Shown here in pieces: positions 53,163-62,850 of a stretch of 64,000 nucleotides of DNA. Below the pieces are notes generated by a model that saw only the letters and a program-made list of their open reading frames with translations, searched no databases and was not told where the DNA came from. The stretch is from an uncultured delta proteobacterium (lineage in GTDB: Bacteria; Desulfobacterota; Desulfomonilia; UBA1062). The position numbers and the translations under genes are program-made. Position 1 is the first letter of the stretch, and each line of letters starts with the position of its first letter. The stretch spans positions 300,038 through 364,037 of the forward strand of contig CAVVYZ010000009.1 of the NCBI GenBank assembly GCA_963752595.1, read 5' to 3'.

Positions 53163-53280
53163 AACCTCTTCCGAAGGCATCAGTCTGCACATTGTCCTAC
53201 CCATAACCAGGGGCGTACCCTGAGCCTAGCCCGTTTGCCGACACATCTCCTTGACCACCAAGGGGATTCTCCCTATAAAG

Positions 53281-54180
53281 ATGATCATGCATGTACCGGA
53301 GCAATTGGTGATCAGGCCTCCGAGCGAGGCGAAAAGCCTGCTCGTGAGGGTGGTGCGCGGATGCAACTGGAACCGCTGCAACTTCTGCGGCATCTACGAC
53401 CTCTTCGGCACGCCGTACTCTTCCCGCGAAAAGGACGAGGTCATCAGGGACATCGATGCCCTCTCCGAGATGTACGGTGATATCTTCAAAACCGCATTCC
53501 TGGGCGATGCCAACCCGCTCGATCTGGAGACAGAGTTTCTCGTGGATATCCTTGAGCATCTCCGTAAAAAATTCCCCGGATTGGGGCGCGTGACTGCATA
53601 CGGCAGGGCTTCGAGCCTTTCGAAAAAGTCTGCAGAAGAGCTGAAAACCATCCGTGAAGCAGGGCTGGACCGGGTGCATGTGGGTCTGGAAAGCGGATCG
53701 AACAGGGTCCTGAAGTTCCAGATGAAAGGGACGAGCCAAAAACAGCTTATCGATGCAGGGGAAAAAACAATGGCCGCGGGCATGGAGCTGAGCTTCTACT
53801 TCCTGCTCGGTCTGGGAGGGCAGGATTTCCGGCAGGAGCACGTTTCGGAATCAATCAAGGTATTCAATGAGGTGAAACCCCATTTCATCCGGGTGAGGAG
53901 GCTGTTCATCCACCCCATGTCGCGGCTCTCGGCAAAGGTGCAATGTGGTGAATTCAGGGAGCAGGCTCCCGAAGGCACCGTCCTGGAACTGCGGGATCTC
54001 ATTGCCGGGCTCGATACGGAAGGTACGACATGCGCCTGCGATCACGCGAACAACTACCTGCAGGTTTTCGGAAAGCTCAATGAAGATAAGGAAAAGATGC
54101 TCGAATTCATCAACACCTTCCTTGCCCTGCCCGAGCATCAGAGGATTGCCCACTATAATTCCGTTCCATCCGTGATCTGA
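53281..54180 (+). CDS. Radical SAM protein, paralog of 41225..42103
   Basis: IRPPSEAKS, CNWNRCNFC, FLGDAN, VGLESG, DHANNYL. Confidence 0.9.
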   Translation: MIMHVPEQLVIRPPSEAKSLLVRVVRGCNWNRCNFCGIYDLFGTPYSSREKDEVIRDIDALSEMYGDIFKTAFLGDANPLDLETEFLVDILEHLRKKFPGLGRVTAYGRASSLSKKSAEELKTIREAGLDRVHVGLESGSNRVLKFQMKGTSQKQLIDAGEKTMAAGMELSFYFLLGLGGQDFRQEHVSESIKVFNEVKPHFIRVRRLFIHPMSRLSAKVQCGEFREQAPEGTVLELRDLIAGLDTEGTTCACDHANNYLQVFGKLNEDKEKMLEFINTFLALPEHQRIAHYNSVPSVI

Positions 54181-54310
54181 TAAGGGAATTCCTGCAGTGT
54201 GCGGTTAAAACCAAGAAGCCCTTTGTTTTTCCCAATGATTCCAATAAAATCTACTTTTTTGCTTGACTTATGAGCCGTTTTGACTTTAAAGCTCCATTTC
54301 TATGACGAGT

Positions 54311-54358
54311 ATGAAAAACATAACCATCAGCACCAGCTTCTTTTTCTTCTTTGTTTAG
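54311..54358 (+). CDS. Phenylalanine-rich attenuator leader peptide MKNITISTSFFFFFV (in-frame upstream ATG at 54302)
   Basis: ATG AAA AAC ATA ACC ATC AGC ACC AGC TTC TTT TTC TTC TTT GTT TAG: five consecutive Phe codons, one codon before the stop. Confidence 0.85.
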   Translation: MKNITISTSFFFFFV

Positions 54359-54451
54359 GTCTACCTGCGTACACGCTTTTTAAGATCTGACCAAAGAGAA
54401 CGAGGAAAAAAGCCGTAGGTAGACCGAGTCGGTCTACCTACGGCTTTTTTT
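54347..54451 (+). promoter_or_regulatory. Transcriptional attenuator (protector, antiterminator, terminator)
   Basis: Terminator GCCGTAGGTAGACC/GGTCTACCTACGGC (54412-54444) + T7; antiterminator GGTCTACCTGCG (54358-54369) is complementary to the terminator 5' arm; protector 54347-54362 pairs with 54383-54398. Confidence 0.88.
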
Positions 54452-54518
54452 ATGCATTGTTCCTTGGGAAGCCCATGGAGCATGCATGGAGATATCATAT
54501 CAAGAAGGGGGAAACAGT

Positions 54519-55730
54519 ATGGTGAGAGGGTTAAAATTTTTGATCAGTGCGGTGGCAGGCATCGCAGTCTTCTGCGGGGCCATGTCGGCATCCGCAGAGA
54601 ACATCAAGGTAGGCGCGGCAATGAACCTGACCGGCCCTGCATCAACCTGGGGGCAGTACCATGCCAAGGGCCAGCAGGACTACTTCAGATACGTCAACGA
54701 GGTAAAAGGCGGCATCAAGGGCAGAAAGATCCAGATGATCACCGTGGATACCGCCTACAAGGCGTCCGAGGCGGTTGCTGCCGTCCGGAAGTTCGCCATG
54801 CAGGACAAGGTGGACATGATCGCCACCTGGAGCGCAGGAGAAGGCATCCAGGCGAAACCGCTGCTCCAGCAGTTCAAGATCCCTGCCATCAACTACTCCA
54901 CGGCCTGGGAGATCCTGCAGCCGCCGGTCGATTACATGTACCTGCCTTTCGGCAACTACAAGCTCGACTGCCAGGCCGTGCTCGAGTACGTCGTTGCCGT
55001 GCACAAGGGCAAAAGTTCACCCAAGGTCGGCCTGCTGACCTACAACAACCCCTACGGCCGCTCAATCCACGAGCCGAGCAGGGAGTATGCGAAAAAGAAG
55101 AATATAGAGATCGTGTCCATCGAGGAGTTCCCTCCTCAGACCGTTGATCTCACCACCGAGCTGCTCCGCCTCAAGCAGAAGGGAGCCCAGTACGTATTCG
55201 TCCAGATGCTGCCCGCAGCCATCATCAGCACGCTCAAAAGCGCTGACCGCATCGGCTACAACCCGCAGTTCATCGGCACCTGGACCTCTACGGACCCGGA
55301 TTTCTTCAAGAACGGCAAGGGCCTCATCAAGGACCGGGTGAAAATGCAGTTCTGCGGCGCGCTTCCTTCGGACAAGACGCCCGGGATCAAGCTGATGGAA
55401 GGTATCTGGAAGCGCTACAAGACCGTTGATTCCTTCGATACCGCCTACTGGGAAGGCATGGTTGTCGGCATGATCATGGAACGGGCATTTGCAAGGGCCC
55501 AGGAGAAGTTCGGAAACATCACGCCCGAAAACATCAACAAGGCCATGGAGACCTTCAGGAACGAGGACTTCGGCGGGCTGGTCCCGAACATCACCTACAC
55601 CAAGAACGACCACGGCGCATCGTTCAAGGGCAGGATCGTCCAGATTCACGAGAACGGGACCTTTACCCCGCTGACCAATTTCTTCACCCCCGGCAAGGAC
55701 AAGATCAGAGCTCAAAGTGAAATAACGTGA
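54519..55730 (+). CDS. ABC transporter substrate-binding protein, LivJ/HAAT family
   Basis: Signal peptide, IKVGAAMNLTGP, YVNEVKGGIKGRKI, DTAYK. Confidence 0.92.
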   Translation: MVRGLKFLISAVAGIAVFCGAMSASAENIKVGAAMNLTGPASTWGQYHAKGQQDYFRYVNEVKGGIKGRKIQMITVDTAYKASEAVAAVRKFAMQDKVDMIATWSAGEGIQAKPLLQQFKIPAINYSTAWEILQPPVDYMYLPFGNYKLDCQAVLEYVVAVHKGKSSPKVGLLTYNNPYGRSIHEPSREYAKKKNIEIVSIEEFPPQTVDLTTELLRLKQKGAQYVFVQMLPAAIISTLKSADRIGYNPQFIGTWTSTDPDFFKNGKGLIKDRVKMQFCGALPSDKTPGIKLMEGIWKRYKTVDSFDTAYWEGMVVGMIMERAFARAQEKFGNITPENINKAMETFRNEDFGGLVPNITYTKNDHGASFKGRIVQIHENGTFTPLTNFFTPGKDKIRAQSEIT

Positions 55731-55843: not shown

Positions 55844-55905
55844 GGATAAAAGGACTTATTGTGAGGGCATTTCGCGGACAACCACGAATCTTCTCCGCCG
55901 ACAAG

Positions 55906-56725
55906 ATGGCGCAGAGACGGGCCGAGCTCGAGGTAAGGGGCCTGTCTCTTTCCTTCGGCGGCATACACGCCGTCAGGGATGTGGATCTTTCCGTCCATAC
56001 CGGGAGAGCTCGTGGCCGTCATCGGGCCGAACGGTGCAGGCAAGACGAGCCTCCTGAACTGCATCACCGGGTTCTACAAGGCCACGTCGGGCGATATCGT
56101 TTTCAACGGCCGGAGCATTACCCGCATGCACACCCACAAGCTCACCTCTCTGGGCATCGGCCGGACCTTCCAGAACATCGAGCTCTTCCCGGGCATGACC
56201 GTGCTCCAGAACATGCTGCTCGCCCGCCATACCCGCTCCTCCTACAACTTCGGGCTGGCCTGCCTGTTCTCTCCCTCGGTCAGGCGTGAGGAGGTCCGGC
56301 ACCATGAGATCCTCGAAGAGATCATCGATTTCCTGGAGATGCAGTCCATCCGGAAGGAGCTCGTGGGCTCGCTGCCCTACGGCATGCGCAAGCGGGTGGA
56401 GCTGGGCGGGCTCTGGCATCGGAGCCGAGCCTGCTGGTGCTCGACGAGCCTTTTGCCGGAATGACGCTGGAGGAGAAAGAGGACATGGTGCGCTTCCTCC
56501 TGGAACTGCACGACGGCTGGGGCCAGACCATGATCCTGGTGGAGCATGACATGTCCATCGTCATGAGCATCTCCGAGCGCATCATCGTGCTCAACTTCGG
56601 CGAGAAGCTCGCCGAGGGCCTGCCTTCCGAGATCCAGGACCATCCCGAAGTCATCAAGGCCTACCTCGGGGATACCACGGACCTGGACCCGGACAAAAAG
56701 GAAACGGAAGAGGTCCATGGATGGC
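55906..56725 (+). CDS. ABC ATP-binding protein, LivG-like (frameshifted; 3' end approximate)
   Basis: SFGGIHAV, GPNGAGKTS, RTFQNIELF, LPYGMRKRVEL, LDEPFAGM, VEHDM, VIKAYLG. Confidence 0.88.
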
Positions 56726-58677
56726 CGGTCATTCGCGGAAAGTCAGCGCTGGAACGCCTCGATGCGCTCGAACTCCTGCACCCTTCCCCAGGTGCTCTTG
56801 AGACAGGCCGAAGTTTTCGGGAACAGGCATACCGCCATCCGGGAAAAGGCCTACGGCGTCTGGCAGACCTATACCTGGGAAGACTACCTCCAGTACGTGA
56901 AGTACACCGGCCTCGGGCTCAAGGCCCTGGGCCTCAAGCGCCACGACCACGTGGGCATCATCATGAACAACCACCCCGAGTGGCTGTTCTCACAGCTCGG
57001 GGCACAGGCCTTCGGCGCGGTAACGCTCAACCTCTTCACCTCGGCCGTTGCGAGCGAGCTGGCCTCTGCCCTGAACCGCATCCAGGCGAGCTTTGTCATC
57101 GCCCAGGACCAGGAGCAGGTGGACAAGCTCCTGGAACAGCTCGCCAAGCTGCCCCACGTGAAGGCCATCATCTACGTGGACCCGACGGGCATGAGGGGCT
57201 ATGCGGACAACAAGCTCCTCGTCAGCTATCAAAGACCTGCTGGACCTGGGGAAAAAGCATCGATGCCGAGCACCCGGGGCTGTTCAGCGAAGAGATAGCC
57301 AAGGGAAAGCCGGAAGATACGGCCCACATGATCCTGACCTCCGGCACCACGGGCCTCTCCAAGCTCGCCATGCTCTCGCACCGGAACTACGCGGACATGG
57401 GCAGGAAATGGATCGAGGCCGCCCCGGTGGGCATCGGCACGAACTGGCTTTCCATGACGCCGCCCGCCTGGATCGTGGACCAGATGTGGGCGTTCGGCGT
57501 GGCGCTCCTGGGCGGCATGACCATGAACTTCCCCGAGACCCCCGAGACCGTGACCGCGGATTTCCGCGAGATCGGGCCCGAGCTGCTCATCTCCTCGTCG
57601 CGGTTCTGGGAGGACCTGGCCTCGAAGATCAGGGTCAAGATCGACGATGCGGGGTTCGTCAACCGCGCCATGTTCTGCCTGGCCGAGCGCATCGGGTCGG
57701 CCGTGGTGAACCGGAAGGCGAAGAAAGAGCCCGTTCCGCTTGCCTTGAAGCTCCTCCACGGCCTGGCAGCGCAGCACTGGTGTTCGACCCGCTGCTGGAC
57801 CGCGTGGGATGCTCCCGGTTCACCAGCGCCTACACCGGAGGCCACCCCATCAGCCCGGACGTGATCCGCTTCTTCCGGGCCTGCGGCCTGAACCTCAAGC
57901 AGTGCTACGGCCTCACCGAGACCTGCGGCATCTTCCAGGTGCAGCCCGACGACGAGGTGAAGCCCGAGACCGTGGGCAAGGCTCTGCCCAACACCGTTGG
58001 TCAGGATCTCCAATGACCAGGAGGTCATGGTGCTTGAGCAAGTCTGTCTTTTCCGGGTATTACAACGACTACGAGTCCACGGAAAGCACGTTCGAGAACG
58101 GCTGGTTCCTCACCGGCGACGCCGGGTACTTCGACGACGACGGCCACCTCGTGATCATCGGCCGCAAGCAGGACATCATCCGCGACAAGGAAGGGAACGC
58201 CTTCTCGCCCGGATTTCATCGAGACCAGGCTCAAGTTCTCGCTCTTATGTCAAGGAGGCCGTCATCTTCGGCGAAGGCCGGCCCTACATCACCGCGCTCA
58301 TCAACATCGACCAGGGCAACGTGGGCAACTGGGCGGAAGACGCGCATGATCCCGTACACCACCTACACGGACCTGTCCCAGCGGCCCGAGGTGGAGGGCC
58401 TCATCCTCGCCGAGGTGAAGAAAGGTCAACGAGCAGCTCCCGACTGCCCATGAAGATCCGGAAATTCATCCTGCTCTACAAGCTGCTGGATGCAGACGAC
58501 GAGGAGCTCACCCGGACCGGGAAAGTGAGGAGGCGTTTCGTGTACGGCCTGTATCTCCCCATGATCGAGGCAATGTATTCGGGCTTGAGCGAGCTGCCGG
58601 TCAAGGGCAAGGTACGATACCGGGACGGCCAGGTGGGCATGATCGAAACGATCGCCCGGGTCATCACCGTGAACTGA
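56717..58677 (+). CDS. AMP-binding acyl-CoA synthetase, long-chain-fatty-acid-CoA ligase-like (several frameshifts)
   Basis: AIREKAYGVWQTYTW, TSGTTGLSK, QCYGLTE, WFLTGDAG, ELTRTGKVRR. Confidence 0.88.
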
Positions 58678-58703
58678 TACGGTAAATTTTAGGAGCTTAA
58701 ACT

Positions 58704-59580
58704 ATGGAATTCTTCTTACAGCTGCTTATAAACGGACTGAGCATAGGGCTGCTGTACGGGCTTTCGGCACTGGGCTTTGTCATGATCTTCAAGTCGTCGT
58801 CCGTGCTCAATTTCGCCCACGGCCAGCTGCTCGCCATCGGCGCCTTCTTGTTTCTCGTCCTGGTCTCCTGGTCGAAGGTGCCTATTGCCGTCGCCTTCCT
58901 CATCACCCTGGCGGGAAGCTTCGTGCTGGGGTTCGTGGTGGAGCGGATCTTCCTGCGGCCGCTCATCGGCGAGTCACTGATCTTCGTCATCATGCTCACC
59001 GTGGGGCTGGCCTCCATGTTCAAGGGACTGCTCCTCTTCTTCTTCGGCGGCAATCTCCAGACCTACCCGGACTTCCTGCCGCCAAGCTGGCCATCCAGAT
59101 GGGCAACATCTACATCCCGCCGGTATACGTGGCATCTTCGCTCATGGGAGGGGTCTTCCTCGTGCTCTTCGGGCTTTTCTTCAAGTACTCGCCCCAGGGC
59201 ATCTTCATGCGGTCCGTTGCCGACAATCAGACCGCGGCCCTGTCTCTGGGCGTCCACGTGAAAAAGGTCTTTGCCCTGTCCTGGGCCATCGCGGCCATGG
59301 TGGCGGCATGAGCGGCATCGTGCTGGGCATCATCAACGGCATCAACGTGCACGAGATATCATCCATCGGCCTCAAAGTCTTCCCGGTGGTGATCCTGGGC
59401 GGGCTCGACAGCATCGGCGGTGCCATCATCGGCGGCATCATCATCGGCCTGCTGGAGACCTTCACCAGCGGGTACATTTCACCGTCGCTCCGGGACGTCG
59501 TCCCCTACATCGTCCTGGTCGTGATCCTTCTCATCAAACCCTACGGCCTCTTCGGGCTCGTAGAGATCGAGCGGGTATGA
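58704..59580 (+). CDS. ABC permease, LivH-like (frameshifted)
   Basis: QLLINGL, LGFVMIFKSS, NFAHG, VILGGLDS, KPYGLFG. Confidence 0.88.
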
Positions 59581-59581
59581 G

Positions 59582-60667
59582 ATGGATATGCCGGTGAGGA
59601 AGCTTACATTCCATCCCTGCGGAAACTACAAGGAGCATTACAGCCCGGGAGCTCACCATCTTCGAGACCGACTTCGGAAGAATGTGGGCGTTCATCGGGC
59701 TTATGCTGCTCTTCGGCGTCGTGCCCTTCATCACCTCGCCCTACCTGCTCTACGTCCTCAACATGACCGGCATTGCAGCCATCGCCGCGCTGGGCCTGAA
59801 CATCCTCGTCGGGTTCACGGGCCAGATCTCGCTGGGGCACGGGGCTTTCTTCGGCGTGGGCGCCTATGCAGGGGCCATCCTGGCCACCACGTTGGGCATG
59901 CCCTTCTGGGCTGCCGTGCCTGCGGCCGGGCTCGTCACCGCCTTCGTGGGCATGATCTTCGGCATCCCCTCGGGCAGACTCAAGGGCCTCTACCTCACCA
60001 TCGCCACCCTGGCGGGCCAGTTCATCATCGAGTACATCCTGGTGCACTGGGACAGCCTCACCAAGGGGACCATGGGCATCATGCTGCCCAGAGCAAGCCT
60101 GTTCGGGTTCGAGATCAACTCGGACCTCCGATTCTTCTACGTGATCTTCGTCTGCCTCACCTGTGTTACCCTCGTGGCGTCGAACCTTATGCGCACCCGC
60201 TACGGCAGGGCCTTCATCGCCATCCGGGACAACGACCGGGCGGCCGAGGGCATGGGCATCCCCATCTTCTTCTACAAGCTGCTCTCCTTTGCCATCAGCT
60301 CCTTCTATGCAGGGTTCGCCGGGGCGCTCTGGGCATACTACATGCGGAGCATCTCCACCGAGCCCTTCACGCTTGGGCCTGTCCGTGGAATACATCGCCA
60401 TGGTCATCATCGGCGGCCTGGGCAGCATCCCGGGCTCGATCTTCGGTGCGGTCTTCATCACCGGCCTCAACGAGGTCTCTGCGCTTCGCCACGGATGCCA
60501 TGATGAACTTGGCGGCCTTGAGCGGGTTCGGGCTCAATATGGCATCTCTGCGCGAGTTTGCCTTCGGCCTGGCCATCGTCCTGTTCATCCTCTTCGAGCC
60601 CAAGGGGCTTGCCGAGCTGTGGCGGATCGTCCGGTCCACCTTCAGGCTCTGGCCGTTCTCCTACTGA
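59582..60667 (+). CDS. ABC permease, LivM-like (frameshifted)
   Basis: GLNILVGFTGQISLGH, RLKGLYLTIATLA, GRAFIAIRDND, EPKGLAELW. Confidence 0.88.
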   Translation: MDMPVRKLTFHPCGNYKEHYSPGAHHLRDRLRKNVGVHRAYAALRRRALHHLALPALRPQHDRHCSHRRAGPEHPRRVHGPDLAGARGFLRRGRLCRGHPGHHVGHALLGCRACGRARHRLRGHDLRHPLGQTQGPLPHHRHPGGPVHHRVHPGALGQPHQGDHGHHAAQSKPVRVRDQLGPPILLRDLRLPHLCYPRGVEPYAHPLRQGLHRHPGQRPGGRGHGHPHLLLQAALLCHQLLLCRVRRGALGILHAEHLHRALHAWACPWNTSPWSSSAAWAASRARSSVRSSSPASTRSLRFATDAMMNLAALSGFGLNMASLREFAFGLAIVLFILFEPKGLAELWRIVRSTFRLWPFSY

Positions 60668-60678
60668 AGGGAAAAGTC

Positions 60679-61491
60679 ATGGAAAACGTGAAGACCGAAA
60701 TCCTGCTCCAGCTCAACAACATCAGCGTGGTCTACTCCGACGTCATCCAGGTGCTCAAAGGGGTCTCCCTCAAGGTGCCCAGGGGACGGATCGTCTCGCT
60801 TCCTGGGCAGCAACGGCGCGGGCAAGACCACGACCCTGAAGGCCATCTCCGGGCCTGCTGAAGCCCGAGAACGGCAAGGTGACGGACGGCGGGATCATCT
60901 ACAACGACCATCACATCCAGAACCTGTCCCCGGAAGAGATCACGCGGCTGGGCATCATCCAGGTGCTGGAAGGCAGGCAGCCCTTCAAGTATCTCACCAT
61001 CGAGGAGAACCTGAAGGTCGGCACCGCGACGCGCTGGACAAAGCCCTACAAGAAAGACCTGGAGCTCGTGTACCACTACTTCCCCGCCCTCACGAAGCGC
61101 AGGAAGACCATGGCCGGCTACTGCAGCGGCGGCGAGCTGCAGATGGTGGTCATGGGCAGGGCGCTCATGGCCCACCCCAAGCTGCTCCTGCTGGACGAGC
61201 CGTCCCTGGGCCTGGCGCCCCTGGTGGTAAGGAGATCTTCCGGATCATCAGGCGGATCAACGAGGAGCAGGGCACCACCATCATCCTCGTGGAGCAGAAC
61301 GCCAACATGGCGCTGCAGATCGCCCACTTACGGCTATGTCATGGAGAACGGCAAGATCGTGATGGAGGGCGAGGCAGAGGCCTGAAGGAGAACCCGGACG
61401 TGAAGGAGTTCTACCTGGGAGTCGGCGCTGGCGGCGCACCCGGTCGTACCGGGACGTGAAATCCTACAAGCGGCGGAAGAGATGGCTGTAA
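60679..61491 (+). CDS. ABC ATP-binding protein, LivF-like (frameshifted)
   Basis: VYSDVIQVLKGVS, Walker A NGAGKTT in a shifted frame, SGGELQM, LLDEPSLGLAP, C-terminal YKRRKRWL*. Confidence 0.88.
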
Positions 61492-61590
61492 GCTGAACGT
61501 ATAACTGCCTTTTCTTCAGCGTGAAGGTAACTTGATAGAATCTCCCGCCATTTTGCCGGGCGGCGAAGGCATTAAAAAAGGGGGCGATCT

Positions 61591-62850
61591 ATGAGTACAT
61601 ATCTCGACGATCTCGAAACCATGACCCAGCCGGAGCGTGAGAGCATATCAGGATAACCGGCTCGCTCGAAATGGTGCGGCTCGGCTATGAGCGCTCCGCC
61701 AGGCTCAGGGCAATGTTTGACGATCGCGGGCTTAAACCCTCCGATATACGGACCGTAAAGGACCTCGCCAAGCTCCCGGTCATCAACCGGGAACAGACTC
61801 GTGGAGATTGAGGCCGAAGAGCCGCCCTTCGGCGGACTGGCCGACCCGAAGCCCCATCGAGCGCATCTTCACCTCTCCCGGCCCGGTGTACGAGCCGCAC
61901 CTCGGCTCCGACGATCCGCTCTGGGCAAGGGCATACAAGGCCGCAGGGTTCGGCAAAGGCGATATCGTGCTGAACGCCTTCTCCTATCACATGGTGGCTG
62001 CAGGGCTCACCTTCCACGGCGGGCTGAACCAGGTGGGCGCCACGGTGGTGCCCTCCGGCGCCTCGGCCACCCAGCAGCAGGTCCAGCTCATAAAGGATCT
62101 GAGCGTCACCGGCTATACCGGCACCCCGAGCTTCCTCATGGCCATCATCGAAAAGGCGCGGGAGATGGGCTTCGACTTTGCAAAGGACTTCCGGGTCGAG
62201 TCGCGCGTGCTTTGCGGCAGAACCGCTCCTGCCTTCGCTTGCGGCAGCGCTTCGAGACCGAGTTCGGCATCGACACCTACCAGATGTACGGCGCCACCGA
62301 GGTGGGGGACGTGGCCTACGAGTGCCCGGAAAAGAAGGGCTGGCACATCTGCGAAGAAATCATCGTGGAGATCGTGGACCCGGCCACCGGGAGCAGCGTG
62401 AAGCCCGGCGAGCTGGGCGAGGTGGTGGTAACCAGGCTGAACCACATCTTCTTCCTCTTCCGCTTCGGCACCGGCGACCTTTCCAGCCTCATTGAGGAGC
62501 CCTGCTCCTGCGGCAGGACCTCGTACAGGCTCTCCGGGATCGCAGGCCGGGTGGGGGATGCGGTGAAGGTCCGGGGCATGTTCGTGGCGCCGAGCCAGGT
62601 GAAGAAGGTAACCGAGAGTTTCCCCGGCATAGCTGTCCAGCTCGTCATCACCCGGTCGGGCCACAAGGACATACTGACGGCCAGGGTAGATACGAAAGGA
62701 TCCGGCATCGACACTGCCGGCCTTACGTCCCGCTTCGAGAAGATTTTCCAGGAAATCTGTACCGTGAGGATAGACCAGGTGGATTTCGTCAGTCCCGGCA
62801 GCATTCCGGATGGCGCCAAGCTGCTCGTTGACGAGAGGGAGTGGAAATAA
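61591..62850 (+). CDS. Phenylacetate--CoA ligase (PaaK) family protein (frameshifted)
   Basis: DLAKLPV, FTSPGPVYEP, NAFSYH, YTGTPSFL, QMYGATEVG, IRF-type RFGTGDLS, KVRGMFV. Confidence 0.85.

Follow-up and report, generated by a model that had tools for sequence, protein, structure and literature searches.

A putative phenylalanine-sensing transcription attenuator upstream of a Liv-type transporter/CoA-ligase operon in an uncultured member of the Desulfobacterota

In the genome of an uncultured delta proteobacterium, an element spanning 200 bases, with a short open reading frame (ORF) rich in phenylalanine codons and an intrinsic terminator, lies directly ahead of an operon for a Liv-type ABC importer and two CoA ligases. 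This arrangement raises two questions, namely whether the element is a transcription attenuator that responds to phenylalanine, and why such a device would control a transporter. A sequence-only reading of the 64,000-nucleotide stretch of DNA analysed here (hereafter, the window) had proposed a Phe-sensing ribosome-mediated attenuator, and this proposal is supported by conservation of the element, maintenance of the reading frame, base-pair counts and folds with a modelled ribosome. The ORF, its Phe run and three competing helices are present in the sequence, as are their conservation and spacing in relatives. From these data, the element is a real, conserved and very probably functional Phe attenuator. 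We put at about 0.9 the probability that it works by classical ribosome-mediated transcription attenuation, with charged tRNA-Phe as the signal, and opens the transporter/CoA-ligase operon when Phe is short.

Organization of the locus

The element is located between a radical SAM gene and the predicted operon, as follows.

53251–54180: upstream radical SAM gene, an ORF ending before the element
54519–55730, + strand: Liv/HAAT-type substrate-binding protein (Pfam Peripla_BP_6), the predicted first regulated gene
~55861–56664, + strand: LivG-like ATPase
~56717–58677, + strand: FadD-like acyl-CoA ligase
58704–59580, + strand: LivH
~59590–60667, + strand: LivM
~60679–61488, + strand: LivF
~61590–62850, + strand: PaaK-like CoA ligase

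Six of the seven operon genes (window positions 55861–62850) are split over several frames in this assembly. In loci L039, L057 and L072, each of LivH, LivM and the two ligase genes is a single frame, and a trp-like cluster on contig C30 of this genome is fragmented as well; the frame breaks in the operon are therefore probably assembly indels.

Leader ORF and predicted promoter

The leader region contains the following features.

54263–54268, + strand: predicted -35 element TTGACT (TTGAC invariant in 22/22 aligned family leaders), with a putative promoter function
54287–54292, + strand: predicted -10 element TAAAGC (TA conserved, last T mostly absent)
54302–54358, + strand: leader ORF of 18 codons, MTSMKNITISTSFFFFFV, with a predicted near-leaderless start
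54338–54352, + strand: five consecutive Phe control codons, read directly
54356–54358, + strand: leader stop codon TAG, read directly

The five consecutive Phe codons noted in the sequence-only reading are confirmed by direct inspection, and an ATG-initiated ORF with five consecutive Phe codons near its stop appeared in none of 2000 dinucleotide shuffles of the intergenic region. The ATG and the TAG are the same in all 22 aligned leaders of the window's family and stay in frame with each other whatever the length of the leader, and codons -2 to -5 encode Phe in every case, with exchange between TTT and TTC, while the leader peptide outside the Phe run varies freely. The conserved leader start is the first ATG (54302), found in all 22; the second ATG (54311) is present in only two of them and was rejected as a conserved start.

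The ribosome-binding site, previously described as weak, is absent rather than weak, as no Shine-Dalgarno-like word precedes the leader ATG in any of the 22 family leaders. TTGAC is found 37–39 nt before the leader ATG; among the distinct promoters of the family, all 20 have a TA at a spacer of 17 or 18 behind TTGAC[TA], and the -10 hexamer is separated from the ATG by 9 nt in 18 of these and by 8 nt in the other two. Genome-wide, the 389 TTGAC[AT] sites show a TA peak at spacer 17 (0.16 vs a background of ~0.07). A consensus promoter scan of 53500–55000 returned no promoters, most likely because the weak -10 element TAAAGC falls under the scan threshold; the promoter was placed by comparison of the family leaders, which supersedes the scan. 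Transcription is accordingly predicted to start at ~54299–54302, 0–3 nt ahead of the leader AUG. Since a Shine-Dalgarno sequence is absent and a promoter-like site is found 8–9 nt before the conserved first ATG, translation of the leader is probably near-leaderless. In one family member, L017 (leader identical to that of L037), the start is preceded by AGGAG instead. The idea that the TTGAC promoters of this genome give leaderless starts in general was considered and rejected, as ATG is not enriched at 38–39 nt from the 389 sites.

Competing RNA structures and ribosome position

Three competing helices were identified downstream of, or overlapping, the Phe codons.

54412–54451, + strand: intrinsic terminator with a 14-bp stem (54412–54425/54431–54444) and U7 (T7 at 54445–54451)
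54358–54425, + strand: antiterminator (54358–54369/54414–54425 plus 54375–54381/54407–54413)
54347–54398, + strand: protector helix (54347–54362/54383–54398)

The terminator stem consists of 14/14 Watson-Crick pairs (-28.3 kcal/mol) and its T7 ends 67 nt before the ATG of the binding-protein gene (54519), in agreement with the perfect 14-bp hairpin originally placed about 70 nt before the next coding sequence. A pattern scan of 53500–55000 found no terminators and is likely to have missed this one because pairing between its A5 and T7 flanks carries the stem on into the T run. The antiterminator, including its GCTTTTT/AAAAAGC extension, also holds up: segment 54358–54369 is an 11/12 copy of the terminator 3' arm and pairs with 54414–54425 at 12/12 positions (one G-U), and the extension pairs at 7/7, for a total of -24.3 kcal/mol. 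A three-way repeat of this kind arose in none of 300 shuffles of the intergenic region. The protector forms 15/16 pairs (-13.4 kcal/mol), and the minimum free energy fold of 54290–54460 consists of protector plus terminator (z = -7.25; 0/200 shuffles as stable). On the 3' side of the terminator, positions 54452–54500 of the window contain a small palindromic stretch (CCCATGG, GCATGCATG) that is echoed in several family members.

The effect of the ribosome was modelled by an equilibrium fold with masked bases, using a 12-nt footprint and RNA exposed to 54436, which is about where polymerase reaches the U tract. The antiterminator probability was 0.01 with no ribosome, 1.00, 1.00, 1.00, 0.85 and 0.60 with the ribosome on Phe codons 1 to 5, and 0.00 with the ribosome at the stop codon, the last value being low partly by construction of the masking. 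With a 9-nt footprint, the respective values were 0.71–1.00 on the Phe codons and 0.27 at the stop. When the full-length RNA is folded at equilibrium, the terminator wins in every ribosome state; antitermination must therefore be kinetic.

The same model was applied to 62 homologues (L108, with too little upstream sequence, was left out, and L032 was read in the wrong frame). A ribosome stalled on Phe codons gave an antiterminator probability above 0.8 in 59/62, and a ribosome at the stop gave a probability below 0.2 in 61/62. Without a ribosome, the antiterminator was suppressed and the protector dominant in only 14/62, although the upper part of the protector is largely kept within the window's family. 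The last Phe codon starts 8 nt ahead of the antiterminator strand in 47 of the 62. The original proposal, in which a stalled ribosome breaks the protector and so permits read-through whereas a ribosome at the stop masks the antiterminator, is consistent with these folds as far as the two outcomes are concerned, but its protector-breaking step does not seem to be conserved, and the protector, while present in the window, is probably not a general part of the element. In the modelled folds, what the homologues share is that the ribosome occludes the antiterminator strand, and the protector looks like a local addition; the conserved feature is a spacing such that a ribosome on the Phe codons would spare that strand and one further on would cover it.

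Conservation among orthologues

Searched with the binding protein, 26 of 61 genomes gave an orthologue of at least 60% identity. Each of the 23 orthologues of the window's family is preceded by a short ORF containing four or more Phe codons in a row, and leader ORF, antiterminator and terminator all recur ahead of each of them; the three sister-family orthologues all lack the Phe leader. In a GTDB scan, in which the best 80 of 124 relatives were examined (some of them duplicates of the 61-genome set), the leader motif was present in 68/80 loci: 67 that passed the motif and terminator filters plus L078, which has the leader and the motif and failed the terminator filter. The remaining 12 of these 80 loci had neither leader nor motif. 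In a quick tree of 90 proteins (the 80 GTDB loci and 10 of the first set), the 15 proteins without the Phe leader form one side of a branch with support of 99, so a single gain or a single loss suffices to explain the distribution. In the same tree, the near-leaderless group is one branch (support 97) nested among the Syntrophales-type copies.

Base pairing was counted in 63 distinct sequences, after truncated or near-identical ones (L043, L075, L087, L089, L109) had been left out; as the 63 are related, the figures are counts and not probabilities. For the 11 terminator pairs, 97.8% of the 693 cells are paired, and five of these pairs have changed on both sides. The nine core pairs of the antiterminator are formed in 98.1% of 567 cells, as opposed to 26–49% in slid controls, and only one of them has changes on both sides. 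Positions 54363, 54420 and 54436 change jointly in all three strands (GCG in 39, GTA in 13 and ATA in eight of the 63 sequences), and the core GGTCT[AG]CC is strongly conserved in sequence. At orthologous loci, where the initial reading suggested looking for Phe-rich leaders and covarying stems, the leaders (23/23) and the pairing of the stems (~98% of cells) are both kept.

In the Syntrophales copies, Phe codons are interspersed with those for Ser, Gly or Ala, and the sequence before the start is often purine-rich. In many of these copies, the first terminator is directly followed by another hairpin and T run (GGCCGTG...CGGCC), as seen at L061, L067, L076, L081, L084, L094, L100, L102, L103 and L107. 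Both Tyr and Phe codons occur in the Smithella-type leaders (L046–L055 and L196; e.g. YYFYFFSF), located ~110–200 nt ahead of the binding-protein gene, and this mixture suggests that the operon in those organisms may serve both amino acids. In orthologues without a Phe leader, a strong Shine-Dalgarno-like word (e.g. AAGGAGGTG) is found ~90–140 nt ahead of the binding-protein gene, in some cases with a short Lys-rich ORF behind it (L040, L041, L045, L064, L070, L074, L080, L088, L093, L096 and L099).

Sister attenuators on the same scaffold

A covariance model was built from the core of the element and run on the genomes. In this genome (G000) it detected two more sites, each with a leader of mixed Tyr/Phe(/Trp) codons ahead of a DAHP synthase-type gene, and a third leader, coding for a WWW run, was found among 149 terminator-like sites.

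G000:C28:12012–12148, - strand: sister attenuator (locus L146), mixed aromatic leader MNRNADRYFGYYYFWFIRGGPPVG, before a DAHP synthase-type gene
G000:C23:22783–22915, - strand: sister attenuator (locus L147), mixed aromatic leader MITASATRYYGFYFGFIGEEPPVG, before a DAHP synthase-type gene
G000:C30:87164–87330, + strand: Trp leader MNTYLPPFTILTTRWWWRIRRDGAVGGLP with terminator

The DAHP synthase-type protein on C28 scores above its NCBIfam cut-off. At both L146 and L147, the ATG is found a few bases behind a promoter-like site and a moaC-like gene is located downstream; the two loci may be paralogues or may be a product of the 6.8% contamination of the assembly. The Trp leader on C30 has TTGACA-17-TATAGA 8 nt before its ATG and precedes fragmented ORFs that, recognised by eye, read like trpE-G-D-C-F-B.

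In relatives, the scaffold occurs ahead of genes for DAHP synthase, iorA (with Tyr/Phe codons), a TRAP binding protein (Trp codons) and another iorA (Trp codons). Aromatic-rich leaders precede seven of the ten iorA loci that were read, and only three of 27 scaffold matches read (L140, L160 and L161) were without an aromatic leader. The occurrence of one scaffold with Tyr, Trp or mixed codons before genes of aromatic pathways supports aromatic amino-acid sensing, and this match of codon to pathway, as judged from the sequences, is the strongest independent support for amino-acid sensing by the element. At L192 (G013:C70:8296–12000) and L162, a Trp-rich leader (GWWRWY) is located before a TRAP binding protein gene that is divergent from an iorA-iorB-paaK-like cluster, making these loci candidates for indole-3-acetate salvage.

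Proposed mechanism

Under the attenuation model, transcription would begin 0–3 nt before the ATG at 54302 and the leader would be translated without a Shine-Dalgarno sequence. When Phe is plentiful, the ribosome would reach the stop codon at 54356 and cover 54358 to ~54367, blocking the antiterminator, and the 14-bp hairpin would then terminate transcription at U54445–54451. When Phe is scarce, the ribosome would stall on the Phe codons and release 54358–54381 from the protector without covering this strand, which would capture 54407–54425 and allow transcription to go on. A transcript that is not translated, such as one reading through from the radical SAM gene, would fold into protector plus terminator and stop.

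Purpose of the operon and alternative explanations

The presence of sister copies before aromatic biosynthesis genes suggests that the operon salvages a precursor of Phe, such as phenylacetate, a reading to which we give slightly better than even odds; direct uptake of Phe is considered unlikely, and other precursors take the remaining share. The salvage route would comprise import, CoA activation, carboxylation by indolepyruvate:ferredoxin oxidoreductase (Ior) and transamination. Precedents are described for Methanococcus maripaludis, in which aromatic amino acids are made from aryl acids by way of Ior (PMC4162585), and for rumen cultures, which produce Phe out of phenylacetate (PMC7356843); in the route outlined in these sources, uptake and CoA activation would be the share of the operon. 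In the literature searched, neither attenuation control nor this transporter was found to be described for the aryl-acid route. Among the 61 genomes, 54 have an iorA above the family cut-off, and IorA heads iorA-iorB-paaK-TRAP clusters (read from ORF starts and blast matches).

In this genome iorA was not assembled, and G000 also lacks orthologues of genes that neighbour iorA in relatives (topA, ileS and others); topA is missing from both G000 and G004. True loss of iorA is not supported, as the whole topA/ileS/iorA block is missing and the assembly is 84% complete, and an assembly gap is the likelier explanation. Phe auxotrophy was rejected as the reason for the operon, as prephenate dehydratase is above its cut-off in 55/61 genomes, including this one, in which pheA is found on C31. 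As these cells have pheA, salvage would be a saving and not a need.

Several findings speak against salvage, among them the widespread prephenate dehydratase and the unassembled iorA of this genome. Although its closest solved structures are PaaK phenylacetate-CoA ligases (E 4e-48), the PaaK-like protein (scored on the intact homologue at L062) is far under the PaaK cut-offs, with 180.9 vs 646.3 bits for TIGR02155 and 217.9 vs 700 bits for NF041878, which places it outside the PaaK equivalog. The PaaK-like gene is present in 36 and missing from 14 of the 50 leader-bearing operons with enough sequence, and the iorA operons already have paaK-like and TRAP genes of their own. In addition, the closest solved structure to the binding protein, 3LKB from Thermus (27% identity, TM 0.86), holds valine.

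The last two kinds of evidence, the valine-bound structure and the 14 operons without a PaaK-like gene, would fit an operon with the same attenuator that imports Phe itself, other hydrophobic amino acids or Phe-containing compounds, with the ligases as passengers or with other targets. LivK of E. coli carries the annotation of a Leu/Phe binding protein, and attenuation of a Phe transporter would be logical. Against this stand the FadD-like ligase, which is inside the operon in 50/50 leader-bearing loci with enough sequence, and the second structural match of the binding protein, a fatty-acid binding protein (4N03). Moreover, the positions of Glu226, Tyr202 and Ser79 of LivJ/K, which, in the numbering we assume, we take to bind the amino group of the ligand, hold Trp255, Leu231 and Ala106 here, which speaks against an alpha-amino acid ligand as far as a weak alignment (20% identity) allows. 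The binding-protein model has a pLDDT of 92.7; an assignment of its substrate from structure was dropped, as the Foldseek matches are a mixture of amino-acid, fatty-acid and aromatic-acid binders at 15–27% identity. On balance we regard Phe import as unlikely and salvage of a Phe precursor as the preferred reading.

It is far less probable still that the leader senses something other than the charging of tRNA-Phe, whether by a stall on the nascent peptide or a small molecule (TnaC-like, with Phe or an aromatic acid) or through a riboswitch or protein-binding switch on the same helices. An uptake and CoA-ligase operon could be catabolic and induced by its substrate, and the strong sequence conservation of GGTCT[AG]CC would suit such a switch, but the free variation of the peptide outside the Phe run and the change of control codons with the downstream pathway argue against it, and in this geometry a stall at the stop codon would terminate and not induce. 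None of 11 Rfam matches at E <=10 in 53900–54800 was to a T-box or riboswitch model.

That the hairpin is only a constitutive terminator of the radical SAM gene, with the Phe ORF as a by-product of U-rich sequence, is scarcely credible: although a pattern scan found no other terminator between the stop of that gene (54180) and 54451 and the fold of the full-length RNA is dominated by this hairpin, just 14/59 leader-bearing loci have the radical SAM gene as their direct upstream neighbour, the frame, start, stop and Phe codons are kept in 22/22, a promoter-like site is conserved ahead of the ORF, and the antiterminator copy changes jointly with the terminator.

Relation to known attenuators

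The best Rfam match of the element is Phe_leader (RF01859), over the full length of the model, at 34.6 bits and E 8e-4, under the gathering cut-off of 55. We take RF01859 leaders to be located upstream of pheA, whereas the element described here is upstream of a Peripla_BP_6 gene; it works, on the proposed mechanism, like E. coli pheL and is not a member of RF01859. A further Phe leader attenuator in E. coli is that of pheM-pheST. For pheL, the source consulted describes leader-peptide transcription attenuation ahead of pheA (PMC3082878). As in E. coli pheL-pheA, a short leader ORF has a Phe run near its end, the antiterminator strand repeats the terminator 3' arm and begins at the stop codon or immediately behind it, a long helix covers the Phe codons, and an intrinsic terminator is located ahead of the first gene (PMC3082878). 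In contrast to pheL, the target is an ABC importer with CoA ligases and not pheA or pheST, the leader has no Shine-Dalgarno sequence, and the host belongs to the Desulfobacterota, whereas the 53 pheL genes of PMC3082878 are gammaproteobacterial.

Other features have parallels elsewhere. In Corynebacterium glutamicum, the ilvBNC attenuator leader peptide is likewise made without a ribosome-binding site, and the actinobacterial aroF leader (Phe-Tyr-Phe) is a mixed aromatic leader before DAHP synthase, as in the sister copies (both as described in PMC4046766); these leaders, likened here by description, differ in phylum, amino acid and target. The 'ABC-leaders' and bmrB-bmrCD also place a premature terminator and an antiterminator before ABC transporter genes (PMC2965389, PMC4191407). 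Unlike the present element, however, bmrB responds to antibiotics, and the word 'phenylalanine' does not occur in the main text of PMC2965389.

Within the delta-proteobacteria, the aroA' supraoperon of Desulfovibrio vulgaris is mentioned in the attenuation section of PMC1173090. No description of the present element was found in the literature searched, which comprised main texts; the supplements of PMC2965389, PMC3766115 and PMC1173090 may list related leaders. The mechanism is textbook, and it is the target, the lineage and the predicted near-leaderless start that were not found in that literature. Some sister copies may already be in print. Candidate attenuators in delta-proteobacteria were reportedly described by Lopatovskaya in 2010.

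According to a 2013 survey, amino-acid attenuators are mostly gammaproteobacterial and their targets mostly biosynthetic (PMC3766115). With the element, classical Phe attenuation would reach beyond gammaproteobacterial genes for biosynthesis and synthetases to an operon for an importer and CoA ligases in uncultured anaerobes. Since control codons report what a pathway supplies, the leader would also point directly to the function of a transporter cluster that is widespread and unassigned, and it suggests that Ior runs in the biosynthetic direction in these organisms.

Distribution of the scaffold across the phylum

At the phylum level, 59 of 151 genomes match the core model at E <=0.001. A short ORF rich in aromatic codons is present at each of the 28 new top loci, a count to be read with the preference of the model for U-rich codons and the choice of the most aromatic ORF by the script. 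Of 12 downstream proteins scored, four are ADH synthases, three DAHP synthases, one is shikimate-kinase-like and one is a partial IorA; the other three had no NCBIfam match at E 1e-40. These data allow a broader proposal, to which we give somewhat less than even odds. The scaffold would be a Desulfobacterota-wide family of aromatic attenuators outside Rfam, re-coded with Phe, Tyr, Trp or mixed codons according to the pathway. The Phe copy described here would be its leaderless member, and the Phe-only code would name the substrate class of an uncharacterised ABC importer with CoA ligases built into its operon, by which syntrophic anaerobes would take up and activate phenylacetate for salvage to phenylalanine. 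If so, leaderless initiation would make the Phe copy deaf to read-through from upstream genes.

In many genomes of the phylum (L198–L202, L205, L208–L213 and L220), the scaffold occurs with mixed aromatic leaders before archaeal-type ADH synthase (aroA') genes. At L215:1500–2676, a Phe-only leader (FFKRFFFFSF) precedes a gene whose 309-aa product matched no NCBIfam model at E 1e-40, a candidate for a further Phe-linked gene.
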